Below are positions 1 through 48,171 of a stretch of DNA of 64,000 nucleotides, one piece after another. The notes beneath the pieces were generated by a model. The model had not been told where the DNA came from. It worked only from the letters and a program-made list of their open reading frames with translations, and did no database searches. Position 1 is the stretch's first letter; every line of letters begins with the position of its first letter. Position numbers and translations under genes: made by a program. The DNA is from an uncultured Gammaproteobacteria bacterium (lineage in GTDB: Bacteria; Patescibacteriota; Patescibacteriia; XYB2-FULL-38-15): positions 536,909-600,908 of the forward strand of contig OZ246416.1 in NCBI GenBank assembly GCA_965231095.1, in the 5' to 3' direction.

Positions 1-534
1 AACGGCACGGAGACGTGCGCGACCTGCGCGCACGACTGCGGCAGCTGCGCCCCCTTCTGCGGAGACCACGTCTGCAACAGCGGCGAAAGCTGCTCGAGCT
101 GCGCGGCCGACTGCGGTTCCTGCTCGCCGACCTGCGGCGACGGCGCGTGCAACAGCACGGAAACGTGCTCGTCCTGCTCCCGCGACTGCGGCGCCTGCGG
201 AACGACCCGCCGATCCGTGATCATCGACTACACGGCTCCGGCCGGTTCCACCACGGTGACCTTCTACAGCTCGTGGACATCGTGGGACTACGATCTCGAC
301 CTGACCCCGTCCGGAGCGTCCGGACGTCTGTGGGTCTCCTACGACCTCGCGCCCGGAACCTACCGGTTCAACTTCAACTTCCTGTACATCAGTCCCTACT
401 GGGCCTGCACGCTCCCGACGCCGCCCTACCGCGTCGTCGGCTCGATGTCCGTGACGGTGGACGGGGTTCCGACCTCGACCACGCAGGTCACGAACTACCA
501 GGAGGGCTGCAACTTCGAGTTCGTGGTTCGGTAG
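1..534 (+). CDS. 5'-truncated CDS (frame 1). C-terminus of a Cys-rich repeat protein: three ~22-aa units of the form TCGDxxCNxxExCxxCxxDCGxC, followed by a beta-rich domain. High GC.
   Basis: Frame 1 translation from the window edge: NGTETCATCAHDCGSCAPFCGDHVCNSGESCSSCAADCGSCSPTCGDGACNSTETCSSCSRDCGAC...FVVR*. The track ORF 217..534 is the in-frame tail. The track ORF 15..560 is a different, Arg-rich spurious frame. Confidence 0.6.
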   Translation, partial: NGTETCATCAHDCGSCAPFCGDHVCNSGESCSSCAADCGSCSPTCGDGACNSTETCSSCSRDCGACGTTRRSVIIDYTAPAGSTTVTFYSSWTSWDYDLDLTPSGASGRLWVSYDLAPGTYRFNFNFLYISPYWACTLPTPPYRVVGSMSVTVDGVPTSTTQVTNYQEGCNFEFVVR

Positions 535-652
535 GACCAACCAACAACTTACCCGCCTAGCTCCTATGTTCTGACATTCGGTCGGAACAGAGACGGGTAA
601 GTCCAGTCACTTCCAGTTTGTCGCCTAGGGCGGCGACGAACTGCTCGTATAA

Positions 653-692
653 GGCCAGCTTTCCTTCACCGGATCGCTGGCCTTCTTTTTTT
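653..692 (+). terminator. Rho-independent terminator after the first CDS.
   Basis: ggccagc...gctggcc stem followed by a T9 run. Confidence 0.6.
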
Positions 693-955
693 ATTTATTT
701 CCCCGCGAGGACAGATTTAACGAATTACGGCCTGAGCCTGTCGAAGGCTAATTCAGTTTCACAAAATTTTTACCCCTTCGATAAACTCAGGGAATAAAAA
801 TTTAACTTTTCGGCAAATACATAACGCTTCGCCCGTGAACTAGTTCGCAAAATTGGAGCCGGGGTTTCTACCATTATTTTAATCTAAAAGTAATATTTTT
901 GTTCTAATCCCGTTTTAATCTTAACTGGCCAAAACCAGTCTTTTGTCACATAACC

Positions 956-989
956 TTGACAAAATCAATCTTTTGTTATAACCTATAAA
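956..989 (+). promoter_or_regulatory. Candidate sigma70 promoter (cTTGACAaaa, with an ambiguous -10) upstream of the kinase gene. Direct repeats tcttttgtYaYataacct lie nearby.
   Basis: TTGACA at 956-961. tataaa and ttataa candidates follow. A two-copy direct repeat lies at 941-983. Confidence 0.35.
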
Positions 990-1007
990 GTTAGTTCCTT
1001 AACAAAC

Positions 1008-1056
1008 CGCGTCCGAGGCTTGGATTGATTTATAAATAAATCCAAACTTCGGACGT
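1008..1056 (+). promoter_or_regulatory. Long imperfect hairpin in the 5' leader of the kinase gene.
   Basis: cgtccgaggcttggatt...aatccaaacttcggacg inverted repeat, with no following T-run. Confidence 0.35.
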
Positions 1057-1144
1057 GAAAAATAACCCTTGCTCAAAAGAGCGAGGTAAAATATAGGTAC
1101 CTGTTGAATTCCAAATTGATCGCCATCCGAGGAGGGAAACAAAG

Positions 1145-2917
1145 ATGGCAACCGACGAAACGATCGGCAAAGTCGACGAGATGATCGGCCGGGTCTTCGC
1201 CAACCACTGGGAAATTGTTGATGCCCTCGGCGAAGGCGGGGTTGGCAGCGTCTACCTCGCCAAACATCGGGCGATGGAAACCTACGCCGCGCTCAAGTTC
1301 TTGAGCCCGAAGCTTCGGGGCGACCCGGAGAGCATCGAACGCTTCAAGAGAGAAGTTGACGTCTTGAAGCGATGCGCCCACCCGAACATCGGGGTCGTCC
1401 ACGACTGCGACTTCACCGGGGAAAATCCTTTCATCGTCATGGAATTCCTTGAAGGACAAATCCTGAAGGAAGTCCTGGACGAAACCCCCAAACGGCGGCT
1501 ACACCCCCAACGCACCCGGCGAATCTTCGTTCAGATCCTGTCCGCGTTGGGTGCGGTACACGACCGTGGCGTGATCCACCGCGACCTGAAGCCGGAAAAC
1601 GTCTTCATTCTCCAACTCGGTGGCGGGCGAGGCAACAGGGATGTCGCGAAGCTGATCGACTTCGGGATCGGCAAGGTCTGTGCCAACGGCATGACGGCCC
1701 AACCCAACCTGACGCAAGTCGGACTAGTGGTGGGAACGCCGCTCTACATGTCGCCCGAACAATGCCGCGGCGAAAAAGATGTCGACGGCAGAACAGACCT
1801 CTACGCCGTCGGCGCCATGATCTACGAGTGCGTGACCGGCCAACTACTCTTCAACAAACCGACGCTTGCAGAAATCATGGTCGCTCACCTGAACGAACAT
1901 CCGGCGGCGCCGAAGATGCTCGATCCGTCGATTTCTTCGGAGCTGGAGGCGGTGATCTTCCGGGCGCTGGCAAAGGATCCTGGCAGACGCTTCCAAACGG
2001 CCGAGGAGATGAGCGAGGCACTCGAAGCCGCGATCCCGGAAGACCTGGCTTACTACCGCAACGACAGTCGCCGGGTTCCGACGGTAGCTAGCCGCGCCAT
2101 TGCAACTCCGCCGCGCATTCCGACTCCGGCCGACGACGATCAGCCAACCGCGGAACGACCTAAGCAACCACCCGACGTTTCCAAAACGCCAACAAGGTTG
2201 CTAAGCGGAAGGCGGCCGGCAGCCGGTCTCGCACATGCCAAAACCGTCACGCCCGCCGACCTGAAACGAGAAATGCGGAAAGCCAAGACGGCGGCGATGG
2301 TTCAGAGGATCGCCAAGATTGCCTGGACATGGATGGCGGCGATGGCCTGGAAAATCGCCACGCGCCTCGACCCCTGGCTCAGTAAGCCTCGGCCTCCGTA
2401 CGCGCGCTACTTGCACGCTTCTCTGATTTTCCTCATCGCCCTCACGCTCACCTTCATCCTTGTTCCTCCTATTGGAGGCGAATATGCCAACGCTTCCTCC
2501 GACACGGATGCTTCCACCACGACCGGCGACCAACCCGACGTTCACGTCCCGCGCGACGTGGTCGTGATCCGGGGACCGGTTCCGATGGCACCTCCATCTG
2601 AACACGACGCGGATGCGGTCGAGACCGAGGTCGACGCCGTCGCAACCGACGCGAGCGAAGAAGACGCGACAGAACCCGAGGCGATCGAAGCCGAAGGTGA
2701 AGCCGCCGATTCCCCGACTCCGTCGGACGACTACGCCGAGCGTCTGGCTGCCGCAGAACTCAAGGAGAAGGCCGGAGACGACTTACTTCTTGAGGGAAAG
2801 CTGCGGGAGGCGCTCGCGGCCTACCGGGAGTCACTTGATCTTTTGCCGGAAGGGGCGGAGAACGACAGAATCCTCCTCCAAAGCAAGATCAATCGGCTCG
2901 AACGACGGCTCAAGTGA
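1145..2917 (+). CDS. Hanks-type (eukaryotic-like) Ser/Thr protein kinase. C-terminal TM segment and acidic/TPR-like tail.
   Basis: Motifs VIHRDLKPENVF, DFGIGK and GTPLYMSPEQ. AGGAGG RBS. High GC (~62%). Confidence 0.9.
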   Translation: MATDETIGKVDEMIGRVFANHWEIVDALGEGGVGSVYLAKHRAMETYAALKFLSPKLRGDPESIERFKREVDVLKRCAHPNIGVVHDCDFTGENPFIVMEFLEGQILKEVLDETPKRRLHPQRTRRIFVQILSALGAVHDRGVIHRDLKPENVFILQLGGGRGNRDVAKLIDFGIGKVCANGMTAQPNLTQVGLVVGTPLYMSPEQCRGEKDVDGRTDLYAVGAMIYECVTGQLLFNKPTLAEIMVAHLNEHPAAPKMLDPSISSELEAVIFRALAKDPGRRFQTAEEMSEALEAAIPEDLAYYRNDSRRVPTVASRAIATPPRIPTPADDDQPTAERPKQPPDVSKTPTRLLSGRRPAAGLAHAKTVTPADLKREMRKAKTAAMVQRIAKIAWTWMAAMAWKIATRLDPWLSKPRPPYARYLHASLIFLIALTLTFILVPPIGGEYANASSDTDASTTTGDQPDVHVPRDVVVIRGPVPMAPPSEHDADAVETEVDAVATDASEEDATEPEAIEAEGEAADSPTPSDDYAERLAAAELKEKAGDDLLLEGKLREALAAYRESLDLLPEGAENDRILLQSKINRLERRLK

Positions 2918-2926
2918 GCTGACCTT

Positions 2927-2967
2927 GCGGCTACGAAGATGCCAAACATCTCGTAGCCGCTTTTTTT
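2927..2967 (+). terminator. Rho-independent terminator.
   Basis: gcggctacga...tcgtagccgc stem followed by T7. Confidence 0.7.
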
Positions 2968-2983
2968 ATTTTATCAAAGATAC

Positions 2984-3013
2984 TTGACAAATTTTTTATT
3001 TTATGGTTAGATA
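2984..3013 (+). promoter_or_regulatory. Candidate sigma70 promoter cTTGACAaa-N17-tggTTAGAT.
   Basis: -35 TTGACA at 2984-2989. Weak -10 candidates at 3007-3013, none a close match to TATAAT. GGAGG RBS at 3063. Confidence 0.35.
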
Positions 3014-3075
3014 AAGGGTGCTCAAGGTGAGCCGAGGGGGGGCAAGGGGCCTCTCTTTTTCAGAGGAGGAGTGTC

Positions 3076-3993
3076 ATGAAGCTCATGGTCGTGGTGGCAA
3101 CGGTTCTTTTCTCGGCCGGCAACGCGCTGGCTCAGCAGGGCTACTCTTTCCAGTCCGACACCCAGACCGCTCTGCCTACCGTCGAGGAATGCCTGGCAGA
3201 CCTGAACGAATGTCGCGAGAAGCTCGGCGCCGAGACCGGCGAGAGCATGGATCTCTTGCTCCGGCTCGCCGAGCGACTGGGGTTCGCTTCGGTCGACGAC
3301 ATGCTCACTTCCGACTGCCGAAGCCGACGAGGCACCTGGTCGAACGGCGAGTGCACCTGCACTTCGCCGAACTCCTGGTTCACGGAAGAGTCCCAGGAGT
3401 GCTGCGTGGACAACGCCCGCGCCTACAGCCGACGCCAGGAATCCTGCCGCGAATCGGGAGGCAACTGGTCCTGCCGCGGCGGCTGCCATTGTCCGCTCGG
3501 CACCCAGCTCCTGGATGGACGGTGTCAGGGAGATGCCGCGACGCGCGACGAGATCGACCGGATGCGCAACCGCATCCCCGAGCTCGAAGCCGATGTCGCG
3601 CGCGTCCAGGGAGAACTGGATGCGGCCCGCGAAGAAGGCGACGGCCAGGCCGACCAGATCAGTGATCTGGAAGGTCGGCTCGAGGCCGCCCAGAACGCGC
3701 TCGACGAATTACGAGATCTCCTGAGCCTTCGAGAACAGCAGCTGCGCGACGCTCTGGGAACCGTTCCGCCCGCTCCCCTTCCGGGAACCGCGGAAGCGAT
3801 CGCCGAAGTCGCCGGCGGAACTGCACCCGGACCGCTCGAGCCGACTCCTCCACCGGAAGCCGAAGAGGGCAACTGGTGCACCGAGAACGGGTGGGCATGT
3901 GCCGGTATCATTATCGGCGCACTGGCCGGACTAGGAGGACTCACGGTCGGAATCGTGGAGGCGACTCGCGACATCGAAGTCACACAACAGTAG
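3076..3993 (+). CDS. Secreted protein with a C-terminal TM anchor: signal peptide, Cys-rich module, long coiled coil.
   Basis: MKLMVVVATVLFSAGNALAQQ signal. Heptad-like DRMRNRIPELEADVARVQGELDAAREE... region. C-terminal WACAGIIIGALAGLGGLTVGIV. Confidence 0.6.
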   Translation: MKLMVVVATVLFSAGNALAQQGYSFQSDTQTALPTVEECLADLNECREKLGAETGESMDLLLRLAERLGFASVDDMLTSDCRSRRGTWSNGECTCTSPNSWFTEESQECCVDNARAYSRRQESCRESGGNWSCRGGCHCPLGTQLLDGRCQGDAATRDEIDRMRNRIPELEADVARVQGELDAAREEGDGQADQISDLEGRLEAAQNALDELRDLLSLREQQLRDALGTVPPAPLPGTAEAIAEVAGGTAPGPLEPTPPPEAEEGNWCTENGWACAGIIIGALAGLGGLTVGIVEATRDIEVTQQ

Positions 3994-4018
3994 CTCTGGG
4001 TTCCTCCCACCCGGAGCC

Positions 4019-4071
4019 AAGGCCGACGTTTTTGATGGCAGCAATGTCTCAAACGTCGGCCTTATTTTTTT
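4019..4071 (+). terminator. Rho-independent terminator.
   Basis: aaggccgacgttt...aaacgtcggcctt stem followed by T8. Confidence 0.7.
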
Positions 4072-4141
4072 ATGCCGCGAAAGAGTAAAAGACTGCAAAA
4101 ACGCAAAATTTGAAAAGAGGTTTTTGTCCCCTTCCACTCCC

Positions 4142-4170
4142 TTGACAAAACTTTAAAAATATGGTATATT
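4142..4170 (+). promoter_or_regulatory. Strong sigma70 promoter TTGACA-N17-TATATT with an extended -10 TG.
   Basis: cTTGACAaaactttaaaaataTGgTATATT. Confidence 0.55.
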
Positions 4171-4195
4171 TAACTGTTCTGAAATGGATGAAAAT

Positions 4196-4330
4196 AAACA
4201 AATTTGGATCCTAAAGTAGTTTGGTTTGATACCTGGGTTGCCTCCTCCTCAACCCCTTGGTTTTCAAATCAAACTACTCAAGGATCTGAAATATGGTCTA
4301 CGCAACCCGGGAAGGTCCCGGGTTGAAAAG
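4196..4330 (+). promoter_or_regulatory. Structured 5' UTR: a ~22-bp imperfect inverted repeat followed by a perfect 10-bp hairpin just before the RBS of the collagen-like gene.
   Basis: ggatcctaaagtagtttggtttga ... tcaaatcaaactactcaaggatc, then caacccgggaaggtcccgggttg. Confidence 0.4.
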
Positions 4331-4353
4331 TTTTAGATAGAAAGGGAAGGAAG

Positions 4354-5709
4354 ATGAGGGCGACTTACGTGGCGAACTTGAGAAAGGTAGCCATTGAAAG
4401 GCTACGACCCGACATCTCGGAAGATGTCATCAGGGGTGCGATCACCCCTCTGATCGACCCCGACGGAGAGGACAAAATTGAGAGGGTGGATCTCCGCCCC
4501 GGACCGCGTAGTGCCACGGCTTGGATCTGGTTTTACGAAAGAGAACCGGCGGCCACGGTGCTGAACGCGCTCGGGAACGACACTGACATGGCGTTCCCGG
4601 GTCTTTCCGTGGAAGGAGGAACGATCCGTGCCCACTACTACGGAGAGCGTCTGCCCTTCACTCAGGACGAACTCCTCGAAGCGCTCATCCGGCTCATGGT
4701 CGGCAATCCTTCCTTCAAGGGCCCACCGGGAGTTTCCCCCTCTCCCGCGGACGTAGCGGCGGCACTCTTGGCCGACCCGGCGTTCGTCGCGACGATTAGG
4801 GGCGAGAAGGGCGAGGACGGAACGGCCGGCACCAGAGGCGAGGACGGCGAAGACGGCACCGCGCCCACGGCAACGGAAGTCGCCTCAGCGCTCATGGCCA
4901 ACCCGGCGTTCATGGCGGCGCTCAAGGCCGACCCCGGAACGACCGGCACCAAAGTAGACAAGGGTGACGCTGGCGCCAAGGGCGATCCAGGAATTCCCGG
5001 TGCGAAGGGCGACCCGGGCACGGCCGGCGTTCCCGGCACCAAGGGCGATCCGGGAACTCCCGGCGTCAAGGGAGACAAGGGTGACGCTGGCGCCAAGGGC
5101 GATCCAGGAATTCCCGGTGCGAAGGGCGACCCGGGCACGGCCGGCGTTCCCGGCGCGAAGGGCGACCCGGGTGACCCGGGCAAATCGGCCCCAAAGGGGA
5201 GTTGGATCACGGCGCTTGCCGTGGCCATCATCGCCTTGATCGTCGTCGGCCTCCACGCCACGTGCGGAAAGTCCGCGCCGAGCCGCGAAGAAGTCGCGGC
5301 AACGCTCAAGGCCGATCCGTCCTTCGTGACGGCGACCAAGGGTGGAAACGGAAGGAAGGGCGAGGACGGCAAGTCGGCCGTTGCACCCACGGCGGCAGAA
5401 GTCGCGGCGGCTCTGAAGGCCGATGCGGAGTTTGCCAAGTCCGTGGCAGCAACCGCGAAACCGGCCGAACCGCCGGCTCCGATCCCCACTCCGCCGCCGG
5501 TCGCTGCGGCTCCGACGCCGGAACCGACGGCAACGACCGCTCCGGCACCGAGACGGCGCGAGACACCTCGACCGCCGAGCGCTCCTCACACGTTTGTGAA
5601 CCGCGAAGGGGAGTATGACATTACGTACGCCCTAGACGAGGCGACCGGTGCGCTCCGCGAGCTGCACCGGAGTGTGATTCGTCTTCGAGAAAGGAGGTCG
5701 CGCCAGTAG
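4354..5709 (+). CDS. Collagen-like triple-helix repeat protein (Gly-X-Y tracts) with a central TM helix and a Pro/Ala/Thr-rich tail.
   Basis: GDPGIPGAKGDPGTAGVPGTKGDPGTPGVKGDKGDAG... and WITALAVAIIALIVVGL. Perfect 81-bp direct repeat at 4957-5037 and 5074-5154. Confidence 0.75.
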   Translation: MRATYVANLRKVAIERLRPDISEDVIRGAITPLIDPDGEDKIERVDLRPGPRSATAWIWFYEREPAATVLNALGNDTDMAFPGLSVEGGTIRAHYYGERLPFTQDELLEALIRLMVGNPSFKGPPGVSPSPADVAAALLADPAFVATIRGEKGEDGTAGTRGEDGEDGTAPTATEVASALMANPAFMAALKADPGTTGTKVDKGDAGAKGDPGIPGAKGDPGTAGVPGTKGDPGTPGVKGDKGDAGAKGDPGIPGAKGDPGTAGVPGAKGDPGDPGKSAPKGSWITALAVAIIALIVVGLHATCGKSAPSREEVAATLKADPSFVTATKGGNGRKGEDGKSAVAPTAAEVAAALKADAEFAKSVAATAKPAEPPAPIPTPPPVAAAPTPEPTATTAPAPRRRETPRPPSAPHTFVNREGEYDITYALDEATGALRELHRSVIRLRERRSRQ

Positions 5710-5714
5710 GCGCA

Positions 5715-5763
5715 GGGCGGACGATGCAAGGTGAAAACCAAGCATCGTCCGCCCGTTTTTTTT
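5715..5763 (+). terminator. Rho-independent terminator.
   Basis: gggcggacgatgc...gcatcgtccgccc stem followed by T9. Confidence 0.7.
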
Positions 5764-5839
5764 ACTAAAAAACAGGCTACATGCCCGTCTTATTTTTAAC
5801 CTTATAAACTTTAGAGCTTTTTAACTTTAAAACTAAACC

Positions 5840-6208
5840 TTACACCCCCAACTCCTTTTTTAATTTTTCATAACTATTTTTTGCTTTTTCAAATTCTTCT
5901 TCCACCGCCGCCCGGCTTCCACCTTTTAAAAATCCCAAAAACCTATTCAACAGACCATTATATTCTTTTAAATTTTTTTCTGCTCGGGCCAACCTGTATT
6001 TTTCAAATTCCAATTTTGCTTTTTGTTCGTCAGTTAAAATTGAAACTTTTGATGTCGCGGCCGCTCTCTCCCCCAACGGCTTAATGCCCGCCGCGGCTAG
6101 CCGCTCTTCCACGGCTTTAATCAATCTGCTTGAAACCTGGTCTAAAAAAATTTTAACGCTCGGATCGCGGATAACGGTTTGGGCGGTTTGTAAAATTTGG
6201 TCGGCCAT
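5840..6208 (-). CDS. Hypothetical protein (122 aa), co-directional with and downstream of the 907-aa DHH-domain gene.
   Basis: ORF with host-like low GC. No motif recognised. Confidence 0.4.
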   Translation of the reverse strand: MADQILQTAQTVIRDPSVKIFLDQVSSRLIKAVEERLAAAGIKPLGERAAATSKVSILTDEQKAKLEFEKYRLARAEKNLKEYNGLLNRFLGFLKGGSRAAVEEEFEKAKNSYEKLKKELGV

Positions 6209-8972: not shown

Positions 8973-9082
8973 GAAGGCTCCTCAGTGCAATCCTCGGCGC
9001 CGCAACTTATTTACAGGGAGAGCGTTCTCTCTACTCTGCTCAATTTGCCAAACCAATCGCAAAAGCGATTGCTTTATCAAAA

Positions 9083-9158
9083 CGGGTCCGAAGGGATTTG
9101 AACCCTCGATCTTCTCCGTGACAGGGAGACGTGTTAGACCGGGCTACACCACGGACCC
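9083..9158 (-). tRNA. tRNA-Asp (GTC), no encoded CCA.
   Basis: GGGTCCG TG GTGT AGCCCGGTCTAAC ACGT C TCCCT GTCAC GGAGA AGATC GAGGG TTCAAAT CCCTT CGGACCC G. Cloverleaf checked by eye. Confidence 0.9.
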
Positions 9159-9343
9159 AAAATTATATAAAAAATCAAAAATAAAATACTCTTGATTTAT
9201 ATAACTTTACCAATAAAAAAAATATCTGTCAATGCTTTCCTAAGGCGGCTCTCGCTCTCTTGATAATAAAAAAGAGACCCCGGCAATTGAGTTCTTTACC
9301 CTTCTTGCAACGGGGTCGGTTTAGTTGTTTTTGCTTCCGCCTG

Positions 9344-37159: not shown

Positions 37160-39577
37160 CTACCACCCGCAGCCGATGCGGCCAAGGTAGATCTCGTAGC
37201 CGCCTTCGTCGCGAACATCGGACCAGGCAAGCAAGTATTCGTGACCCGTCCAAACCAATGACAGTCCATCTCTTTGTACACAAGTTGTAGCCCGAAAACC
37301 GGAACCCGCTCTGCTACCATCTTCCTTCAATCGCATGAAGTAACATTCTGCTCTGCCAGTGGCATAATTTTCTTGCCACCAAAGACCGTAGCCATTTCCG
37401 TTCCAAGCAATAGCTGGATTAGAAGAATCGTCGGGGGTTATTGTCAGCTGTCTCTCCGTATCAATTTCCGTACCGCTTGCATCGATCCCGGCGAAGTAAA
37501 TTTCTTCTTTTCCGTCCGTAAAGGCAGTCCACACCAAGGCATAGGAAGAGCCATTCCAAACAAGCATTGGGATCGCGCCCCCTCCCGATAAGGGAGCTGT
37601 GGCTACAACCGTAGTGTCTCCAATTGGTGAAGCCATGGAAGTAAATCTGCCAAAATGTATTTCTTGATTTCCAAAAAAAGTAGATACCCACGTTAATCCG
37701 TACTCTGTGCCATTCCAAACTATATTCGGGCGAGCCAGACTAGCGGCCGAGTCTGCTACAAGTGTCATCTCTGAACCGATCTCGGCACCACCAGCGGATA
37801 ACCCTGCGAAGTAAATGTCACCATCACAAGAGTGTCCAAAGGCAATACCGAATTGACTTCCATCCCAAGCAATAGATGAATGGTAAGCCGAAAGTATTCC
37901 GATATGCTCCGCCAACAAAACACCACCGCCAATATCCGAACCCGCCGGGTCAAAATGAGCGGCGTAGATATCTCCGTAACCGGAGCGGTAATCTGTCCAG
38001 GTAAAACCGTATCCTCCGCCTGTCCAAACACCTGACACCGAAAAGAGTTGTGCGGGGGTGCCGATCACTCGTATATCGCCGCCAATTTTGGTGAGAGACG
38101 TATCTGCTCGGGCAAAGTAGATCTCGGTGTTGCCGTCACTCAAATATTCCCAAACAACACCAACTTCAGTGCCTGTCCAAAAAAGAACTGGCCTTCTTGG
38201 ATAACCAACTGAGTCTGTAAAACGTGACCCAGTGAAGGTGTACGAAAAAACCGCAGGATCCAAATCATTACAATCATAGCCACCACAAAGGCCGTCTGTG
38301 TAAGTGTCGTGGTCGCGGTCGCGAATGCGATGTCGACATGTGCCAGCCGCGCAAGAGTCGGCTGTGCAATCATCGCCATCTCCACAAGAAAGTTCCGCCG
38401 GAGACTCATCGGTCGCGCCATCACAGTCGTTGTCTACCCCATCGCAGATCTCGGGCATTTCAGAATCCACGTTACAGTATGAACCAGAACCTCCAAGCGA
38501 GCAGACATACGTCCCGCTGCAAGGAGAAATTCCGCAAACGCTCCTGAGCTCCGGCCAGTCTTCGTCGGTCGCGCCGTCGCAATCGTTGTCCAATTCGTCG
38601 CAGAGTTCGGGTGTGCCAAAAGGAATATCAACGTCGCAAACAGTGCCGCGCTCCAAGGGTTCGCAGACCCAGACATTGCTCCGTTCGCATTCCCCCCAAC
38701 CTGCTGTACAAGCAACGCCAAGCAATGGCCAGTTCTCGTCCGTCTCGCCGTCGCAGTCGTCATCAAGATGATTGCAGCGTTCAACGTGGATCTCGTAGTC
38801 TCCGTCGCAAACGGTGCCTCGATGCAGCGGCTCACAAGCCCAGACTCCCGTCCGCTCGCAAAGTGGCGTTGGCCTGAAAGCACAAACGTCGCCAAGCAAG
38901 GGCCAGGTTTCGTCGATCTCGCTGTCGCAATCTTCATCTAGGCTGTTGCAGAGTTCCGCCGCGCCGGGATGGATGCCCGCGTTCGCGTCGTCGCAGTCGC
39001 CTTCGGATTCGGTAAACGTATCGCCATCGTCGTCGGTTATTGTGGGGTCTGCTGCAGGACGTAGCCATCCTTCGACGGTGTAATTTCTGCTGTCACTAAC
39101 AACGGTGTATCTTCCACTGTCAACATCCATATCCAGGCGGCGAAAACGTCCCGGGATATTATGCCAGTTCTGCTCAATGAGCGTGATGAAGTTGCTCCCC
39201 ACCGCGTAGATGATTGCGATGTGACCATAACGGCCACCCTGGAAAGTGATCGCATCACCTTGCCGCGGGGCTTCCGTTTCGCCATTTCGGAAAGATCTCA
39301 GATCGAGTCTTTCCGCGCGACCGAATATCTGGTTAGCATTACCCCACCGTTCGCCGCTTCTTCCGTGGAACCTCTTCGCATATTCTACACACTGGTAGAA
39401 TCCGCGCCCAGTGCCAGTACAATCGCCTCGCGCGCCGTTCGAAAACGCATCAACTCCGCTCAAGGTACCTAGTGACTCCCCGCAATTGCCACTGCACGGC
39501 GCGCAGAGATCATCTCCCCAAGCAACCTGCGGCAATAGCAAACACAGTGCAACAACCAACGTCTGCAACTTTTCCAT
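37160..39577 (-). CDS. Secreted CHAP-domain peptidoglycan amidase/peptidase fused to four CxxxD(D/E)DCDGxxDE Cys-rich repeats and a 7-bladed beta-propeller. High GC (~57%), likely foreign.
   Basis: Signal MEKLQTLVVALCLLLPQVAWG. CHAP motifs FYQCVEYAKRF and GDAITFQGGRYGHIAIIYAV. Repeats LCNSLDEDCDSEIDE, RCNHLDDDCDGETDE, LCDELDNDCDGATDE, ICDGVDNDCDGATDE. 7 units of W-G-x-x-YG-x-W ... EIYF. Confidence 0.7.
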   Translation of the reverse strand: MEKLQTLVVALCLLLPQVAWGDDLCAPCSGNCGESLGTLSGVDAFSNGARGDCTGTGRGFYQCVEYAKRFHGRSGERWGNANQIFGRAERLDLRSFRNGETEAPRQGDAITFQGGRYGHIAIIYAVGSNFITLIEQNWHNIPGRFRRLDMDVDSGRYTVVSDSRNYTVEGWLRPAADPTITDDDGDTFTESEGDCDDANAGIHPGAAELCNSLDEDCDSEIDETWPLLGDVCAFRPTPLCERTGVWACEPLHRGTVCDGDYEIHVERCNHLDDDCDGETDENWPLLGVACTAGWGECERSNVWVCEPLERGTVCDVDIPFGTPELCDELDNDCDGATDEDWPELRSVCGISPCSGTYVCSLGGSGSYCNVDSEMPEICDGVDNDCDGATDESPAELSCGDGDDCTADSCAAGTCRHRIRDRDHDTYTDGLCGGYDCNDLDPAVFSYTFTGSRFTDSVGYPRRPVLFWTGTEVGVVWEYLSDGNTEIYFARADTSLTKIGGDIRVIGTPAQLFSVSGVWTGGGYGFTWTDYRSGYGDIYAAHFDPAGSDIGGGVLLAEHIGILSAYHSSIAWDGSQFGIAFGHSCDGDIYFAGLSAGGAEIGSEMTLVADSAASLARPNIVWNGTEYGLTWVSTFFGNQEIHFGRFTSMASPIGDTTVVATAPLSGGGAIPMLVWNGSSYALVWTAFTDGKEEIYFAGIDASGTEIDTERQLTITPDDSSNPAIAWNGNGYGLWWQENYATGRAECYFMRLKEDGSRAGSGFRATTCVQRDGLSLVWTGHEYLLAWSDVRDEGGYEIYLGRIGCGW

Positions 39578-39588
39578 CTCTCTACCTC

Positions 39589-40362
39589 CTATCTCTCAAA
39601 CGTCAAGGTGGTAAGTATCTGGCTCTCGAATGCTTCGGGGGTAGTTCCGTAGTCCCCGAAGATCTCTTGCTCTTGTCCTAGTTCCGGAAAGAAAATATAA
39701 TTTCTCTCCGGATCACTAAAGGCGAGAATTCCCGGGAACGCTCTCTCGTCAGGTGATTCGATTTCTGGGGTCAACGCACGAAGTTCAACGCCGGCGAGCG
39801 TACTACTAATCGTCTTGTCGCGCAACTCGAGCGCTTCACCTACACGATTGTTCGCCGTCAGCCATTCGCGAACCGACAAGTGAGACGGGTTTGAAGCAAC
39901 AGCAAATGAATACGCGCTAACGAAATCGTCGCTGCCAGCCTCTTGCAGTTGAATTTCCCGCAACTCGTAGTTGTTCTCATTCCATCCCAAGGGGGCACCC
40001 TCAACTACGCGCAAATTCCACCCCTCCGGGTACTGGAACGAGAAGCCGAGCTCCGTGTTCCTGTACTCTGTCCAGTCGGCCGGAACTTCTCCGGTCGAGT
40101 CTGTCGTGACCTCTGACGCGCTGTCTGGGGAAGTTTCGGAAACATCATTTGTCTCCGAGTTTGTATCAGCGGGCGCCGCGGTCCTAGAACCGCAACCCCA
40201 ACCGACCAAAACCAACGCGCCAAGCATCACGAGCGTAAACACGATTCCCTTCTTCATCTCTATCCTCCTTGTCCCGCATCCCTGCGGAACTTTTTTTCCG
40301 CCAACGGCGGATTTGTTAAAGAGCCGACCTTTCTTCCCTCCTTCAAAAAGGTTAAACAACAT
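39589..40362 (-). CDS. Lipoprotein (hypothetical). High GC. Contains the FSFQYPEGW motif shared with two neighbouring secreted proteins.
   Basis: Lipobox-like LVGWGCGSR. WTEYRNTELGFSFQYPEGWNL. Confidence 0.5.
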   Translation of the reverse strand: MLFNLFEGGKKGRLFNKSAVGGKKVPQGCGTRRIEMKKGIVFTLVMLGALVLVGWGCGSRTAAPADTNSETNDVSETSPDSASEVTTDSTGEVPADWTEYRNTELGFSFQYPEGWNLRVVEGAPLGWNENNYELREIQLQEAGSDDFVSAYSFAVASNPSHLSVREWLTANNRVGEALELRDKTISSTLAGVELRALTPEIESPDERAFPGILAFSDPERNYIFFPELGQEQEIFGDYGTTPEAFESQILTTLTFER

Positions 40363-42424: not shown

Positions 42425-43111
42425 TTATTTCACCTTAAACCCTTGCGTCATCTCTTCAAACTCGCCTACATCGCCCGCCCACAATTCTTCCAGCGTATTG
42501 TAAGAGAGAATCCAAAGATCATTTCCCTCCCCCCAAATAACAATCTCCAGCACATGAAAATCCAGGCCGCTTTTACGAAAAGTCATTTCCGCGGCGTAGG
42601 CTTCGCGGCCGCCTAGAGTTAAAAATTTTTCATTGGAAAAAACCACCTCGGGAATTACCGCGGCCACTTCATTTTTTACATACTCCACAACTTGCTCTTT
42701 TGTTTTTCCTTCTACCGAGTCGTAGGAAACGGCGAGGTATGTTTGGAAATTCATTTTCTTCGCCTCAGGATCGGAAATATTTTCATTGCTTTTCGCAATC
42801 ATCGCGGAAACTCCGGTTATGGCCGGAACCTGGCGCCAGCCCTCGGGATAGTTTAGGGAAAAATCGTCAGTGGCAAAAACTCCCTCATCCGCCGGCGGAA
42901 AATTTTGATTTGAATTATTTTCCAAAATTCCGGAGAGGTTTAAATTATTTTCTCCGAGGATATTGCTCTCTGTAGTTAAAAACCAATAGGCCATGGCGGC
43001 AAGGACAAAGATGACAATGATGGTGATTAGAATTGAGGAGGGTTTTTTCATAAATTTTAAAATATTATTTCGGTACCGGTAAACCAAGTTTCTGCAAAGG
43101 TAAATAATCAA
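42425..43111 (-). CDS. Secreted protein (hypothetical) with an FSLNYPEGW motif.
   Basis: N-terminal TM. DFSLNYPEGWRQV. Confidence 0.4.
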   Translation of the reverse strand: MIIYLCRNLVYRYRNNILKFMKKPSSILITIIVIFVLAAMAYWFLTTESNILGENNLNLSGILENNSNQNFPPADEGVFATDDFSLNYPEGWRQVPAITGVSAMIAKSNENISDPEAKKMNFQTYLAVSYDSVEGKTKEQVVEYVKNEVAAVIPEVVFSNEKFLTLGGREAYAAEMTFRKSGLDFHVLEIVIWGEGNDLWILSYNTLEELWAGDVGEFEEMTQGFKVK

Positions 43112-43652
43112 AGTAATATTGGCACCCCACGGAAATTATATAATCGAGTACATCCTTATATACTTGATTCCTAAACCAATCACTTAAAATATAAATATAT
43201 TCTACTTCAATATTCAGCGGAGCCATTAATTTTGCATATTGCTTTCTCTTAAAATCGCACGTTTGCAATTTTTCATCTACTGAACCAGCAACTTTTTGAA
43301 ATTTTACTTCAATAACGAATAAGGTATTGTTGACTATAACATATATAGCTTCATCTGGAAGCAATTTTTTCGAGATAATTTTTCGATAATCAACCCTTTT
43401 TAATTCTAAAAATTTATAAAGGGCATTCTTCTTGTAGCTACGAGCTACTTCTTCGCCATTATAATATACTGCATTGCCCTTTATCTTATAACCGCGCTTA
43501 GACTTCAAAAGAGAGAGAACGTCTTTTTCTTTTTCAAAGTTTAGTCCCGTGATTGTATTGCCCCCGCCCTTTCCTTTTTCTTTCATATTAATATAGTTTA
43601 AGATTTTTAAATCGCTTGATTGATAAGTCCAAGTATTTTTTATCGAGATCAA
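43065..43652 (-). CDS. Probable Type II restriction endonuclease (PD-(D/E)xK-like). Overlaps the methyltransferase gene.
   Basis: LPDEAIYVIV...VIEVKFQK (PD...EVK). Immediately downstream of, and overlapping, the MTase. Confidence 0.5.
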   Translation of the reverse strand: MISIKNTWTYQSSDLKILNYINMKEKGKGGGNTITGLNFEKEKDVLSLLKSKRGYKIKGNAVYYNGEEVARSYKKNALYKFLELKRVDYRKIISKKLLPDEAIYVIVNNTLFVIEVKFQKVAGSVDEKLQTCDFKRKQYAKLMAPLNIEVEYIYILSDWFRNQVYKDVLDYIISVGCQYYFDYLPLQKLGLPVPK

Positions 43653-44376
43653 CCCCTATAAATTTTCTGCTGTGCAAAAACGCCGCCAAACCAGTGGTGG
43701 ATGACCCCGCGAACGGATCCAAAATTAAATCTCCCTTATTTGTGCTGGCCAAAATAATTCTTGACAACAGATCTGTTGGTTTTTGTGTTGGATGTTTCCC
43801 AAATATTTTTTCTTCCCGCTTTGGAGGATAAATTGCCCACACGCTCCTCATTTGCAAATTAGGTTTTTTTATAAAGTCTTCCGGCCAACTGCCATTTTTC
43901 ATTAATTCATAGTTAAATTTATGTTTTGCTTCTTTGTCTTTGCGCGCCCAAATTAATGTTTCGTGGCTAGCGGTAAAAAACCTACAACTTAAATTGGGCG
44001 ATGCATTCGGCTTAAACCAAGAAATATCATTCAATATATGAAATTTATTAACCTGCAGCGCAAATCCGCACTGGTAAATTGAGTGATAAGTTCCGCTAAT
44101 CCAAATCGTGCCACCCGGTTTTAAGACTCGGTGACAAGCTTTAGTCCAGGCCAGATGAAACTCAAAATCTTTTTTTAGACCGTTACTTACATCCCATCGC
44201 CCTTTATTCACACTCGCCATTTTCCCGCCATTACAAGTAAACCCCCCATTAGACAAAAGATACGGCGGATCGGCAAAAATCATGTCAACTGAATTTTCTT
44301 TTAGAGTCAACAAAAAATCTAAGCAGTTAGCTTGATACAAAGTAAAGCCTGGTTTTGAGTAATAGGGTTTTATCAT
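43588..44376 (-). CDS. DNA methyltransferase (beta-class N6-adenine / N4-cytosine).
   Basis: Motif IV IFADPPY precedes motif I LDPFAGSSTTGLAA. Confidence 0.9.
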   Translation of the reverse strand: MIKPYYSKPGFTLYQANCLDFLLTLKENSVDMIFADPPYLLSNGGFTCNGGKMASVNKGRWDVSNGLKKDFEFHLAWTKACHRVLKPGGTIWISGTYHSIYQCGFALQVNKFHILNDISWFKPNASPNLSCRFFTASHETLIWARKDKEAKHKFNYELMKNGSWPEDFIKKPNLQMRSVWAIYPPKREEKIFGKHPTQKPTDLLSRIILASTNKGDLILDPFAGSSTTGLAAFLHSRKFIGVDLDKKYLDLSIKRFKNLKLY

Positions 44377-44471: not shown

Positions 44472-44516
44472 ATAATGTACTCCCAAATGAGTGGGAGTCG
44501 GAGGGAAGGAGGAGAG

Positions 44517-44867
44517 ATGAGAAATGAACTCGAAATCTGCACCCTGAAATTCACCTTCGGCGTCGGCGGCTACAGCTGCTCGTTCACGATCCGGAGGGGC
44601 GAGATCGTGATCGCGACAGCCCCGACTCTGCCGGCGAACAAGAAGTTCTGCCTCACGGCTCTGAACTATCTGGCGAAGGTGGAGCAGATCCCGAAAGCCG
44701 AGCTGATCGGCCTCCGGATCCAGCTGGAGCAGGCCTTCAGGGAGCGTGCCGAAGCCAGCCGGCCGCGGCTCGATATGCCCGACCTCTTCACGGATGTGCT
44801 GATCGACGTCGCTCTCGCGGACATTGCGGCCGTCGAGGAGGAGTGCACGGCGCGGCTGAGGAATTAG
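44517..44867 (+). CDS. Orphan high-GC (~65%) small protein (hypothetical, ~116 aa). The alternative upstream start at 44475 lacks an RBS.
   Basis: GGAGGGAAGGAGG RBS before the ATG at 44517. MRNELEICTLKFTFGVGGYSC... Confidence 0.5.
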   Translation: MRNELEICTLKFTFGVGGYSCSFTIRRGEIVIATAPTLPANKKFCLTALNYLAKVEQIPKAELIGLRIQLEQAFRERAEASRPRLDMPDLFTDVLIDVALADIAAVEEECTARLRN

Positions 44868-44989: not shown

Positions 44990-46594
44990 TTATTGTGTCT
45001 CCCTTACCGCCGGCGCCGGTTCTGTAGCCGGCTCGCTCTTCAAGATTGTCGGGGGCGGAACTACTCCGTCTCCCACTTCCGAGGTGACGCTGTCTAAAAT
45101 TTCTTTCACAAGAGGAATCACGACCGCCGATTTATAGAATGATCCGTCAGTCGCGCTTGTTTCTAAAACCGGAAACACTAAAGCCGGAACAAGAAGCTCA
45201 ATACTCTGATTGCCATCATATTTCCAATATCTCATATATTGAACCGACGGCGTGCCCAGTTTCACTTCTACTTCTTTCACCTGGAAATTTTCCACCGGAT
45301 AATTTCCCTGCGACCAAAGGTCTCCCTGAAGCGCGAATTTCATCAAACGCTCTTTATCCGTTTCCGCGGCATAGTTTGAACTTTGATAATTTTGCGTTTG
45401 CAATCCGTAAAAGCTTGAGACTTTCATGGTTCTAATATTTATGTTTACGGAAGGCCCGGATCGTTCATAGCCGCCTTGCTCCCAAACTTCTTTTCCGTCC
45501 ACAAGCAGCGGATATTGCACGGTCAGGGTGTCCGGAATCCAAATGTCCGCGGCCGGGGCGCCCAAAATTCCGATTCTCCAATTTTTATTCACTTTCGGCG
45601 CGCCGAAATTCGCGAGATTAATTCCGTAGCGGTTCATAAAATCGTTTGTCGCTTCAATCAACTTTTCGTCAGAGGGGACATCTGACTCGCGAAGCTGCGG
45701 CTGGGACTTATAATCCACGGGCATCATTCTCTGCCAATTTTCATACATGGAAACTATTCCTTCATAAGAATTGAAATCCACAATATATCCGCCCTCGCGA
45801 TCTTCGGCAAGCGACAGATTTTGCACCTTGGCGCTCGTCAATTTACTCGCGTCAAAAAGTCCAAAACCGATATTTCCCAAAACCGAATTCAAGTCTCCGT
45901 TGCCAAAACCTTTTTCCCGGCGCAAGACCGTCACGGCCGAATCAGTGAAAGAAAAATCTTCGCCCGTGTAAACATAATTATATCTTGTCATGTATTCCGG
46001 CGGCAGAATTTTCCCATCCGGCGCGGGCATTGATGTAGCTGTTCCCCCGCCTCCGCCCAATCCCAAAACCGCGCGGGAAGTTGACGAAGACATTGCCTCC
46101 GGTGTACCAAGCGGCGCGGTTGGTGCCGCAGCCCCCGAAGAATTATCAGCTTCAGCGCCGACTAAACCTTGGCTTGAAGTTACCAAATTGCCAAACGCCC
46201 GATCGCCCGCATCTTCAATATTTGCCGGTCCGGAAAAAAGCGCGAGCTGGCTTTCTCGATCAAATTTCGGCAAACTGATCCAGCCGTTTCGCACGGCCGG
46301 TACAACAACCGCTATCGCCAAAACTGCCGCGACCGTGGCAAAAGAAACTCCTCGCCAAAAAACCAAATTTTTCCAAAGCGACGGACGAGCGCTCCCCGCT
46401 TTTTCCAACTCTTCCGCTCGCGCCAACAATTTCATTTTTAATTCCTGGCGAAAATTTTCGTCAAATTTATCTTCCGGTTTCTGGGCAATCATTTTAGCCA
46501 TAGTGGCCTCCAATTCTTTTTGATATTTTTTAAGATCAGGATCAATTGTGAACAATTCGTCTAAAATTTCTTGGATTAAATTTTTCGTATTCAT
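44990..46594 (-). CDS. Single-pass membrane protein with a large extracytoplasmic domain. Candidate anti-sigma factor cognate to the upstream ECF sigma.
   Basis: N-terminal cytoplasmic helix-rich ~90 aa, TM VSFATVAAVLAIAVVVPAV, then ~420 aa outside. Immediately downstream of the sigma gene. Confidence 0.4.
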   Translation of the reverse strand: MNTKNLIQEILDELFTIDPDLKKYQKELEATMAKMIAQKPEDKFDENFRQELKMKLLARAEELEKAGSARPSLWKNLVFWRGVSFATVAAVLAIAVVVPAVRNGWISLPKFDRESQLALFSGPANIEDAGDRAFGNLVTSSQGLVGAEADNSSGAAAPTAPLGTPEAMSSSTSRAVLGLGGGGGTATSMPAPDGKILPPEYMTRYNYVYTGEDFSFTDSAVTVLRREKGFGNGDLNSVLGNIGFGLFDASKLTSAKVQNLSLAEDREGGYIVDFNSYEGIVSMYENWQRMMPVDYKSQPQLRESDVPSDEKLIEATNDFMNRYGINLANFGAPKVNKNWRIGILGAPAADIWIPDTLTVQYPLLVDGKEVWEQGGYERSGPSVNINIRTMKVSSFYGLQTQNYQSSNYAAETDKERLMKFALQGDLWSQGNYPVENFQVKEVEVKLGTPSVQYMRYWKYDGNQSIELLVPALVFPVLETSATDGSFYKSAVVIPLVKEILDSVTSEVGDGVVPPPTILKSEPATEPAPAVRETQ

Positions 46595-47293: not shown

Positions 47294-47310
47294 TATCATA
47301 TAATATGATA
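47294..47310. promoter_or_regulatory. Perfect 17-bp palindrome TATCATATAATATGATA overlapping a TATAAT -10. Candidate operator.
   Basis: tatcatat a atatgata. Upstream of the high-GC two-gene cluster. Confidence 0.45.
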
Positions 47311-47391
47311 AGATATTCTCGGTCAAAGGCCGCAAGCTTTGGCGAGCCAAGATCACCTTCGCTAAAGCTACGGTGATCGATGGAGGAAACA

Positions 47392-48085: not shown

Positions 48086-48098
48086 CGGCCGGATTCCA

Positions 48099-48127
48099 CC
48101 GCGAACTAATCTTCGCGGTTTTATTTT
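48099..48127 (+). terminator. Rho-independent terminator.
   Basis: ccgcgaa ctaatc ttcgcgg followed by ttttatttt. Confidence 0.6.
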
Positions 48128-48171
48128 GAAAAAAAGACTGGGCTTTGTTTTTGCCCAGTCATACCTTCCTC

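Follow-up and report, generated by a model that had tools for sequence, protein, structure and literature searches.

O-antigen (rfb) and capsule (cps) clusters of enterobacteria and streptococci are hypervariable surface loci that occupy fixed sites and have a persistently atypical GC content. Horizontally acquired genomic islands, the subject of the Lawrence and Ochman model, reportedly ameliorate. RcGTA-like gene transfer agent (GTA) clusters of Alphaproteobacteria are described as holding a GC content above that of the host genome under selection, with the excess in codon positions 1 and 2 (Kogay et al., 2020; PMC7360931). What keeps bacterial GC content off its AT-biased mutational equilibrium is presented as a long-standing open question, with selection, biased gene conversion and mutation as the candidates (Hildebrand et al., 2010, PMC2936529; Rocha and Feil, 2010, PMC2936526). 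Comparisons between species confound every variable. Here we describe a GC-rich locus of a Patescibacteria clade in which both compositional regimes stand side by side in one reduced genome and in many lineages. It lies at the start of a 64,000-nt stretch of an uncultured Patescibacteriota bacterium (GenBank assembly GCA_965231095.1, the 886-kb contig OZ246416.1, positions 536,909–600,908, forward strand; hereafter the window) and encodes a Cys-repeat protein (cys2), a receptor-type Hanks Ser/Thr kinase, a coiled-coil protein and a collagen-like protein. Our literature searches on GC-rich islands in the candidate phyla radiation (CPR) found no description of such a locus.

A GC-rich locus at a fixed site

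GC content in 1-kb windows is 0.55–0.65 over positions 1–6000 and about 0.37–0.50 over most of the remaining 58 kb. The four genes that an earlier note on this DNA had singled out as a high-GC run at 1–5763 indeed have GC contents of 0.61–0.67 and GC contents at third codon positions (GC3) of 0.71–0.90 in their correct frames (Table 1), against a GC3 of 0.38–0.50 for resident genes in the rest of the window. Codon usage in this block (hereafter the island) is likewise foreign to the genome and not, as the earlier note had allowed for, the same as the genome's. The fractions of Phe TTC, Tyr TAC, Asn AAC, Lys AAG and Ile ATC are 0.91, 0.93, 0.92, 0.75 and 0.74 in the island against 0.13, 0.26, 0.25, 0.18 and 0.20 in the genome, a codon choice that is almost the mirror image of the genome's. 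GC at first and second codon positions (GC1, GC2) is raised as well, and the island proteins contain more Ala, Gly, Pro and Arg and less Lys, Ile, Asn and Phe than those of the genome.

The enrichment follows the genes. In 100-nt windows the spacers at about 750–1100, 2900–3000 and 4050–4300, and the sequence beyond 5750, have GC contents of 0.31–0.44; GC climbs within about 45 nt of the ATG and drops past the terminator stem. The sole stretch that is both untranscribed and unconserved, at about 700–940, is also AT-rich (Table 1). The island genes lie on the strand opposite to all neighboring genes, and their third positions have more C than G, the strand skew of resident plus-strand genes; this shared skew suggests long residence at the site. 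Among resident genes, C/(C+T) is 0.35–0.53 and G/(A+G) 0.05–0.15 on the plus strand, and the corresponding values on the minus strand are about 0.2 and 0.27. The left end of the block is cut by the start of the window, which falls inside the second gene. Related loci add a complete cys1, the 5' part of cys2 and a fourth promoter upstream, and positions 1–5763 make up the right-hand four-fifths of a five-gene locus.

Related loci were fetched around relatives of the kinase (eleven), through the flanking gene p122 (one) and through a 23-nt core motif of the collagen gene leader (nine metagenome stretches, every one of the same locus type). Full-length kinase relatives are all about 590 aa, are recorded as 'Patescibacteria group bacterium' or 'Candidatus Falkowbacteria' and, among the contigs examined, all lie in this CPR locus. 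A set of 5.8 billion proteins yields only 17 homologs of the coiled-coil protein, and all placeable ones lie there too. In all Patescibacteria/Falkowbacteria relatives whose locus was examined, a block of five or six genes stands directly after the same Wzz-like gene. Its order is cys1 (secreted, Cys-rich), cys2 (Cys-repeat, lipoprotein-like), kinase, coiled-coil and collagen-like, and in loci that extend far enough upstream it is preceded by L20-L35-IF3, SmpB, an AI-2E transporter, two unknowns, a PDZ protease and the Wzz-like gene. The order from SmpB through the Wzz-like gene to the island is seen in L003/L004, L005, L006, L020, L021, L022 and L023/L024 (L numbers denote the loci and contigs compared). 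Downstream, p122 and p907 come next in most members; the full series p122, p907, PPDK and PK is seen in the window genome, L003 and L020, and part of it in L005 and L010. The shorter L010 contig runs from the PDZ and Wzz-like genes through the island to p122 and p907. The most distant members, L022 and L023, have kinases 33–36% identical to that of the window; they keep the upstream synteny, differ in the downstream genes and carry six GC-rich genes (GC3 0.74–0.92), two of which replace the collagen-like gene.

Patchy presence was not seen: the block occupies the same site in all related loci recovered, including a relative found through flanking p122 and not through an island gene (species-representative genomes, among the matches listed). 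This gene order marks the locus as a fixed ancestral feature of one Patescibacteria clade. Occupation of one syntenic site clade-wide implies that acquisition would predate the clade, either as a block or in steps completed before the clade radiated. An integron cassette array was considered and rejected, because a conserved promoter precedes every gene, the hairpins with T runs are terminator-like and no integrase is present in the 10 kb to either side in related loci.

The high GC3 recurs in each gene across loci: 0.78–0.81 in cys1 (n = 6), 0.83–0.90 in cys2 (n = 7), 0.66–0.75 in the kinase (n = 13), 0.69–0.80 in the coiled-coil gene (n = 14) and 0.73–0.89 in the collagen-like gene (n = 12). 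Eleven flanking gene families have GC3 values of 0.30–0.53, and the GC3 ranking among island genes is identical in every lineage. We estimated how far individual sites remember their ancestral state from fourfold degenerate sites in deeply diverged pairs, using only identical residues with identical doublets. In the island, the residual correlation between G/C (S) and A/T (W) states is 0.00–0.12, and GC at these sites (GC4f) is 0.73–0.82 in both partners. Flanking sites are near saturation, with an S/W mismatch of 0.40–0.44 against a ceiling of 0.49–0.50, a residual of 0.10–0.20 and a GC4f of 0.50–0.62. Site states have been redrawn and composition is unchanged, so the composition is the stationary distribution of a local process. 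Thus, the GC-rich coding of the island (GC3 0.66–0.92, where these genomes otherwise have about 0.40) is at steady state and is not a decaying trace.

Synonymous sites of island and host genes also respond to their surroundings in opposite ways. The logit slope of third-position S on the GC of neighboring first and second positions (GC12) is -1.39 in the island (n = 15,987) and +1.53 in host genes (n = 17,339), and the slope on the codon's own doublet is -0.25 and +0.69, respectively. Compared with within-gene synonymous shuffles, the variance of local GC is below expectation in every one of the 32 island genes (mean z -2.2) and above it in all 25 host genes (mean z +3.2). Synonymous sites thus level GC along island genes and heighten its local differences in host genes. 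Together with the steady state, this means that the force at work must be specific to this locus, act only on its coding or transcribed parts and be compensatory along their length. Across the whole window, third-position GC of resident genes is strongly and positively tied to neighboring GC, and G/C-ending codons make up about 0.7 of boxes with SS doublets and 0.13–0.3 of boxes with WW doublets.

The island proteins evolve 10–40 times faster than their neighbors. Between L022 and L023, flanking proteins are 94–99% identical (dN/dS 0.03–0.10), whereas island proteins are 58–84% identical (dN/dS 0.39–0.73) and the island dS is about twofold higher than in the flanks. Promoters, unlike the proteins, are almost invariant across genomes. 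Individual genes also have different nearest relatives. The flanking genes give the tree ((L003,L010),L006),L005, and L003 pairs with L006 in its kinase (70%); the coiled-coil proteins of L005 and L006 are 81% identical (their kinases 55%) and those of L003 and L006 34%. Furthermore, L007 and L005 share 91% identity in the cys2 tail, and the kinases of this pair are 43% identical. The mosaic breakpoint of L007 falls past the cys2 terminator and ahead of the kinase promoter, so conserved spacers are likely anchors for cassette-like exchange. These conflicting affinities identify a hypervariable cell-envelope and signaling locus in which single genes or domains have been exchanged between lineages, with breakpoints in conserved spacers.

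Forces that may hold the GC content

The reading we favor, with confidence a little better than even, is that of an ancestral, hypervariable, steady-state GC-rich locus whose GC content is probably held by selection on coding sequence (CDS) or mRNA. The locus, or at least its Cys-repeat and kinase modules, would have been acquired from a Myxococcota-like source of high GC ahead of the radiation of the clade, and the high GC would since have been held by a locus-specific fixation bias limited to coding or transcribed parts. The most likely force would be selection for a uniformly GC-rich CDS or mRNA that avoids AU-rich patches, and such avoidance may affect RNase sensitivity, decoding, or the structure and stability of the mRNA. 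Control of these transcripts after initiation is suggested by their elaborate conserved leaders; coding selection could act jointly with these leaders as post-transcriptional control. A broader proposal, which we advance tentatively and hold to be somewhat short of even, is that two opposite base-composition equilibria have coexisted in one 0.9-Mb genome throughout the radiation of this CPR clade. About 7 kb of envelope and signaling genes would be kept at a GC3 of about 0.8 by CDS/mRNA selection and the rest at about 0.4 under an AT-biased, context-reinforcing process, with promoters, palindromes and an anti-Shine-Dalgarno (anti-SD) leader marking a dedicated regulon. Among the forces, we rank CDS/mRNA selection first and biased gene conversion next, with mutation bias, a reservoir and slow amelioration less likely.

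Three simpler causes of the high GC3 were rejected. Amino-acid composition or local context does not account for it, as at matched GC12 the C-ending fraction of NNY codons is 0.86–0.90 in the island and 0.36–0.45 in the host. Generic translational selection for C-ending codons is at odds with GroEL (C-ending NNY 0.21) and with housekeeping genes (about 0.2). A uniform W>S bias does not fit a logit shift of +2.8 to +3.5 for WW doublets (Phe, Tyr, Asn, Lys) and of about 0 for Ala, Gly, Pro and Arg.

Several points weigh against the favored reading. Alignment error at 35–45% amino-acid identity could deflate the estimate of site memory. A polarized three-taxon parsimony count (in the island, 196 changes were S>W and 85 W>S; the per-site ratio of W>S to S>W was 2.1 there and 0.66 in the flanks) was dropped, since simulated decay on short branches gives a similar ratio. 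The negative coupling between third-position S and GC12 may be ordinary in native high-GC genomes, and it shows a different regime and not its cause. The placement of homologs in the locus omits short contigs that carry some of them. The mosaic gene trees and domain swaps indicate frequent recombination, which leaves some probability for a conversion bias. Finally, protein functions are read from architecture alone, and the identity of the maintaining force is inferred and not demonstrated.

The evidence on origin bears on the first step of the proposed mechanism. The Cys repeats have relatives with 54–65% identity named Polyangiaceae, Sorangium, Kofleriaceae, Sandaracinaceae and Myxococcus. 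Outside the clade the kinase reaches about 40% similarity, in the kinase domain only, and its named best matches are mostly Myxococcota; this is weak evidence, because the phylum has very many kinases. The resemblance to high-GC phyla proposed in the earlier note therefore extends to the Cys repeats and the kinase domain, and it stops short of any close donor; the placeable homologs of the coiled-coil protein, for example, are confined to this locus. An old, Myxococcota-like, high-GC source is plausible for at least two modules, and these matches give no sign of a recent or recurrent donor. Elsewhere in the window, two minus-strand genes at 37160–40362 have intermediate composition (GC3 0.52 and 0.59): 37160–39577 codes for a secreted protein of 805 aa that has a CHAP domain and CDxxDxDCDGxxDE repeats of the MopE type, a motif often seen in Myxococcota, and the other for a 257-aa unknown protein.

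GC-biased gene conversion, the strongest of the alternatives, is in our view unlikely. The locus would be a recombination hot spot in which mismatch repair of heteroduplexes favors G/C, and besides the signs of recombination, the roughly doubled dS in the close pair and the raised GC1 and GC2 agree with this. The process would be expected to shift all codon boxes uniformly, yet the logit shift is confined to some boxes, and the local coupling is compensatory. The spacers that seem to anchor recombination, and the variable spacer, are AT-rich. Moreover, whole-gene swaps between alleles 35–70% identical would leave little heteroduplex in the CDS.

Recurrent cassette replacement from an unsampled GC-rich reservoir, be it a high-GC relative, a host or an extrachromosomal element, could also renew the GC content. 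Such renewal would suit the cassette-like exchange with breakpoints in conserved spacers and the lineage-specific C-terminal domains of cys2, of which the window's type was found only in P0138. The cys2 repeats of the window genome are also as similar to Polyangiaceae proteins (54–65%) as to CPR orthologs (37–45%). A reservoir of this kind is nevertheless improbable: 5.8 billion proteins hold none for the coiled-coil protein or the full-length kinase, and no relatives of either were found among the viral contigs of IMG/VR. Furthermore, the nine metagenome stretches all have AT-rich spacers or flanks, and the C>G skew at third positions, shared with resident plus-strand genes, suggests long residence.

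We give an equally low probability to a locus-specific mutation bias without fixation bias, arising from self-sustaining protection of GC-rich duplex against deamination or from head-on transcription. The strong positive context dependence of third positions in host genes implies that neighbor-dependent mutation exists, and the orientation of the island against all its neighbors would suit head-on transcription. However, the island is far more GC-ending even at matched local GC12, its negative local coupling is the opposite of a self-reinforcing process, and the second GC-rich islet of the window (see below) has genes on both strands.

Slightly less probable still is an ancient transfer that ameliorates slowly, a relic whose GC no force maintains. 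The excess of S>W over W>S changes in the island is what decay predicts, and the simulation finds these counts compatible with decay on short branches. However, S/W memory is gone at the island's fourfold sites in deep pairs, and GC4f still stays at 0.73–0.82. Under the per-lineage retention derived from the flanks (0.3–0.5), decay would require an ancestral GC4f of at least 1. The gene-specific GC3 values are tightly conserved across lineages, and the host-type context dependence is reversed and not just diluted.

The explanation offered in the earlier note, a recent and separate acquisition of the four genes from a high-GC partner with host promoters fitted later, is very improbable. It draws on strongly atypical codon usage and GC, on a single promoter and terminator for each gene and on the Myxococcota-like Cys repeats. 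The same genes stand in the same order, at the same site and behind near-identical promoters in all related loci, down to 33% kinase identity, and neither the coiled-coil protein nor the full-length kinase has a close homolog outside the clade. Of the classical genomic-island features, the island has the composition and lacks mobility and patchiness. All open reading frames (ORFs) are accounted for, with no integrase or transposase among them; no repeats bracket the block; the nearest tRNA gene (Asp, 9082–9159) is two resident genes away; and no integrase lies within 10 kb on either side in the related loci. Genes 'domesticated one at a time' in the sense of recent transfer are thus contradicted by a whole block at one syntenic site, with near-invariant promoters, in every relative examined. 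What survives of the gene-by-gene view is that single-gene alleles have different nearest relatives; recent piecemeal import is unsupported.

An assembly chimera or binning contamination fusing a high-GC and a low-GC organism, which the sharpness of the GC transitions might suggest and the earlier note had raised as a concern, has next to no probability, for contigs from a different assembler (Logan, run SRR8863431) match the window at 100% identity across every GC transition (L001, window positions -154 to 4985; L002, 5125–9117, through the 5763 boundary and resident genes to tRNA-Asp), leaving only 4986–5124 inside a tandem duplication of the collagen-like gene uncovered, and the same structure appears in about 15 assemblies from elsewhere, with identical junctions in at least 10 other samples.

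Regulatory elements and encoded proteins

Each gene of the island has its own promoter and its own terminator (Table 1), as the earlier note had it: CTTGACAAA occurs at 955, 2983 and 4141, and four genes end in a hairpin followed by a T run. The window holds four copies of this motif against 0.59 expected by chance. A sigma-70 scan confirmed that a good -10 element is found only at the 4142 promoter, the sole strong match (TTGACA-17-TATATT with a TG extension). The -10 of the kinase promoter is weak (TATAAC/TAACCT at 977–984), and its orthologs carry TATAAT; the coiled-coil promoter has a 17-nt spacer ending in TGG, followed by TTAGAT. Two of the window promoters sit in TTTGTCAN-N6-TTGACAAA palindromes, which cover the -35 elements of the kinase and coiled-coil promoters and are operator-like in their arrangement. 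In L003 all four promoters share a 20-nt motif of the TGTCAA-N6-TTGACA form. Across the clade, each unit consists of a conserved promoter (CTTGACAAA as -35, a TG-extended -10 and often the TGTCAA-N6-TTGACA palindrome), a leader and a terminator.

Table 1. Features of the GC-rich locus in the window, with GC and GC3 of the genes taken in the correct frame (TM, transmembrane segment; UTR, untranslated region; MFE, minimum free energy).
Feature	Position	Strand	Description
cys2, 3' part	1–534	+	3.5 CGDGxC..E.C..C..DCG.C repeats, then a beta-rich C-terminal domain of about 110 aa (frame-1 translation); GC 0.67, GC3 0.90
cys2 3'-UTR, two hairpins	560–650	+	6-locus alignment; -37 kcal/mol, z -3.7
cys2 terminator	651–693	+	Hairpin 651–684, -21.3 kcal/mol, z -6.0, T run; conserved in 6 loci
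Variable AT-rich spacer after the cys2 terminator and before the kinase promoter	700–940	+	GC 0.32–0.43; poorly conserved
Kinase promoter	942–990	+	Palindrome TTTGTCAC-N6-TTGACAAA (942–963) overlapping -35 TTGACA at 956–961; near-invariant in 7 loci
Kinase 5'-UTR leader hairpin	1004–1062	+	59 nt; -27.5 kcal/mol, z -7.1
Receptor-type Hanks Ser/Thr kinase	1145–2917	+	PF00069, E = 2e-45; GC 0.61, GC3 0.71
Kinase terminator	2927–2965	+	Hairpin 2927–2960, -23.4 kcal/mol, z -6.4, T run
Coiled-coil promoter	2970–3012	+	Palindrome TTTATCAA-N6-TTGACAAA (2970–2991) overlapping the -35; near-invariant in 7 loci
Tail-anchored coiled-coil protein	3076–3993	+	Weak coiled-coil-type library matches only; alignment of 15 homologs; GC 0.65, GC3 0.74
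Coiled-coil terminator	4019–4072	+	Hairpin 4019–4063, -26.5 kcal/mol, z -5.2, T run; conserved in 5 loci
Collagen-like promoter	4141–4170	+	CTTGACAAA, 17-nt spacer, TG-extended TATATT; 11 of 12 consensus positions; invariant in 5 loci
Collagen-like leader	4172–4353	+	MFE -66 kcal/mol, z -4.7; about 180 nt, near-identical in 11 distinct sequences
Collagen-like membrane protein	4354–5709	+	PF01391, E = 3e-15; GC 0.66, GC3 0.73
Collagen-like terminator, right end of the GC-rich block	5715–5763	+	Hairpin 5715–5754, -33.3 kcal/mol, z -6.8, T run

The transcribed untranslated parts are structured as well. In the collagen-like leader, an 85-nt hairpin with an invariant CCUCCUCCU loop is followed by a second hairpin of 10 bp and by the purine-rich ribosome-binding site (RBS) GGGAAGGAAG. 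The loop complements purine-rich ribosome-binding sites, among them the collagen gene's own GGGAAGGAAG; it is anti-Shine-Dalgarno-like, and the leader may sequester the RBS. Five of the 42 pairs in the 11 distinct sequences show compensatory changes. The leader also occurs at L003:13048–13262 and in nine other loci, and its conservation far exceeds that of the coding sequences. The second hairpin of the cys2 3'-UTR has a constant UAGGGC loop and compensatory changes in its stem (GUCGCC/GGCGAC vs GCAACC/GGUUGC). The kinase leader hairpin, on the other hand, is an insertion confined to three lineages: the window genome, L009 and, in a longer version, L007. The spacer before the kinase promoter differs in length among loci and is missing from the shortest. 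The leaders and UTRs had no match in Rfam 15 at the gathering threshold and only chance-level matches at E ≤ 5. Upstream of cys1 in L003 (6865–7433), and likewise in L005, L006, L020 and L021, a conserved promoter CTTGACAGA-N15-TGGTATAGT precedes a conserved non-coding leader of about 470 nt; the L003 leader has no Rfam match.

The gene identities proposed in the earlier note (Cys-repeat tail, Hanks kinase, coiled-coil and collagen-like proteins) all hold. The start of cys2 lies upstream of the window, where L001 adds 154 nt at 100% identity. Its orthologs (L003, L005, L006, L010, L020–L023) are 336–601 aa long and have lipoprotein-like signal peptides, and its repeat unit is a tandem of 75 nt. 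No curated repeat family of Pfam or NCBIfam matched the window's cys2 tail at E ≤ 0.01. Similarly, cys1, cys2 and the small GC-rich ORFs of the window had nothing above the Pfam and NCBIfam thresholds, and the cys orthologs gave only sub-threshold matches to TSP_3.

The kinase has an N-terminal kinase domain (PF00069; residues 23–287, 155.5 bits against a cut-off of 31.7), one TM at about residues 420–445, an acidic linker and a short TPR-like C-terminus. Its catalytic motifs are readable: a GEGGVGSVY Gly-rich loop, ALKFL, HRDLKPEN, DFG and SPE. The best NCBIfam model, NF033483 (PknB/Stk1), scores 260 bits, far below its cut-off of 450, and a Pfam scan of the kinase found no PASTA domain. The coiled-coil protein begins with a signal peptide and a Cys-rich head, in which at least 11 Cys are invariant. 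A helix of about 70 residues, a Pro-rich linker and a C-terminal TM follow, and this membrane anchor comes in alternative types among the homologs. An AlphaFold2 (AF2) model has a mean pLDDT of 67, with block means of 62–93, mostly above 80, for residues 61–230; a Foldseek search of this model against PDB returned no fold match, only generic helical hairpins (E > 0.7).

The collagen-like protein combines an N-terminal domain of about 125 aa, 'AEVAAALKADPAF' repeats interleaved with G-X-Y tracts (PF01391, 56.1 bits against a threshold of 27.2), one TM at about residues 289–309 and a Pro-rich C-terminal part. It falls short of the Scl/Lcl equivalogs (NF038330, 58 against 400; NF046116, 56 against 500), and neither an N-terminal signal peptide nor LPXTG is readable in its sequence. 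A 117-nt tandem duplication (91% identity) at 4923–5156 (plus strand) lies inside the gene, and both Logan contigs end in it. The claim that all four proteins are secreted, surface or signaling proteins is therefore not established for this one, whose single TM is mid-protein. Judged by these architectures, the locus resembles an envelope module for contact and sensing. In an episymbiotic cell it would likely sense contact with a host or surface and mediate adhesion, and rapid diversification would be of use where partners or predators change.

Other parts of the window share some of these properties. A second GC-rich islet at 47300–49100 (GC 0.55–0.69) has four small ORFs on both strands with GC3 values of 0.62–0.82. 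Two are on the minus strand with their own terminators, 49006–48743 (an 87-aa zinc-ribbon-like CxCxxCxG protein) and 48558–48172 (128 aa), and two on the plus strand, 47392–47733 (113 aa) and 47717–48085 (122 aa, membrane); none of the four has a Pfam match. The window's only other CTTGACAAA (49090–49098, minus strand) lies just upstream of 49006–48743. Directly downstream of the islet, on the minus strand, are an ECF-type sigma factor (46612–47184; Sigma70_r2, r4) and a 534-aa protein without Pfam matches (44990–46594), a candidate regulator pair for the GC-rich genes. Next to the 534-aa gene, 44475–44867 (plus strand; GC 0.58–0.60) may be another small GC-rich gene: its long minus-strand ORF has the wrong frame signature (GC1 0.76), and a 130-aa plus-strand ORF is more plausible. 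On its other side is a low-GC pair (43065–44376, minus strand; GC 0.31 and 0.38) coding for a 195-aa protein and for a methyltransferase-like protein of 262 aa, whose DPPY motif is typical of N6/N4 DNA methyltransferases; the two may form a restriction-modification module of separate foreign origin.

Comparison with known systems

If the broader proposal of two coexisting equilibria is true, shared replication, repair, population size and environment would isolate locus-specific selection for GC from every genome-wide explanation. Clade-specific, fast-diversifying envelope proteins together with a receptor kinase are the type of module expected for host contact in episymbiotic Patescibacteria. 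Furthermore, a strong anomaly in GC and codon usage is neither evidence for recent transfer nor a reason to purge metagenome bins as contamination.

Like classical genomic islands, the locus is a contiguous block of accessory surface and signaling genes with GC and codon usage far off the genome mean, and a foreign, Myxococcota-like origin is plausible for at least two of its modules. In contrast to them, it has no integrase, tRNA target or flanking repeats and is present in every relative examined. Its composition is at steady state, and its internal spacers resemble host sequence and are better conserved than the genes.

Among documented cases in which selection keeps a resident cluster above the GC of its genome, the GTA clusters come closest (PMC7360931). 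As described there, they resemble the locus in being vertically inherited and domesticated, with GC above the background and amino acids shifted to GC-rich, cheap residues. Here, by contrast, the largest excess is at third positions (GC3 0.7–0.9 vs 0.4), where amino-acid content does not explain it, and the background is an AT-rich, reduced genome.

The kinase shares with the PknB/Stk1 receptor kinases an N-terminal Hanks domain, a single TM and an extracytoplasmic C-terminal part. It differs from them in having an acidic linker and a TPR-like element in place of PASTA domains and in being encoded with envelope genes and not with cell-division genes.

Codon-biased regulons, such as the bldA/TTA genes of Streptomyces and modification-tunable transcripts, offer a parallel for the regulation of the locus. 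Here too a small set of genes has a mirror-image codon choice, which could couple translation or mRNA fate to physiological state. Unlike in those regulons, the C-ending NNY codons of the island are read by the same G34 tRNAs as NNU, and the bias extends to all codon positions.

The rfb and cps loci share with the island a fixed slot between conserved genes (next to the Wzz-like gene in this case), allelic diversity, gene-wise mosaicism and a shared atypical GC. The island differs in its high GC within a low-GC genome, in proteins that are not enzymes of sugar pathways, in a conserved promoter, leader and terminator for each gene, and in a steady state documented by the loss of site memory. 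By analogy, the locus behaves most like these hypervariable surface-polysaccharide loci, with the sign of the GC deviation reversed and with proteins as its products.

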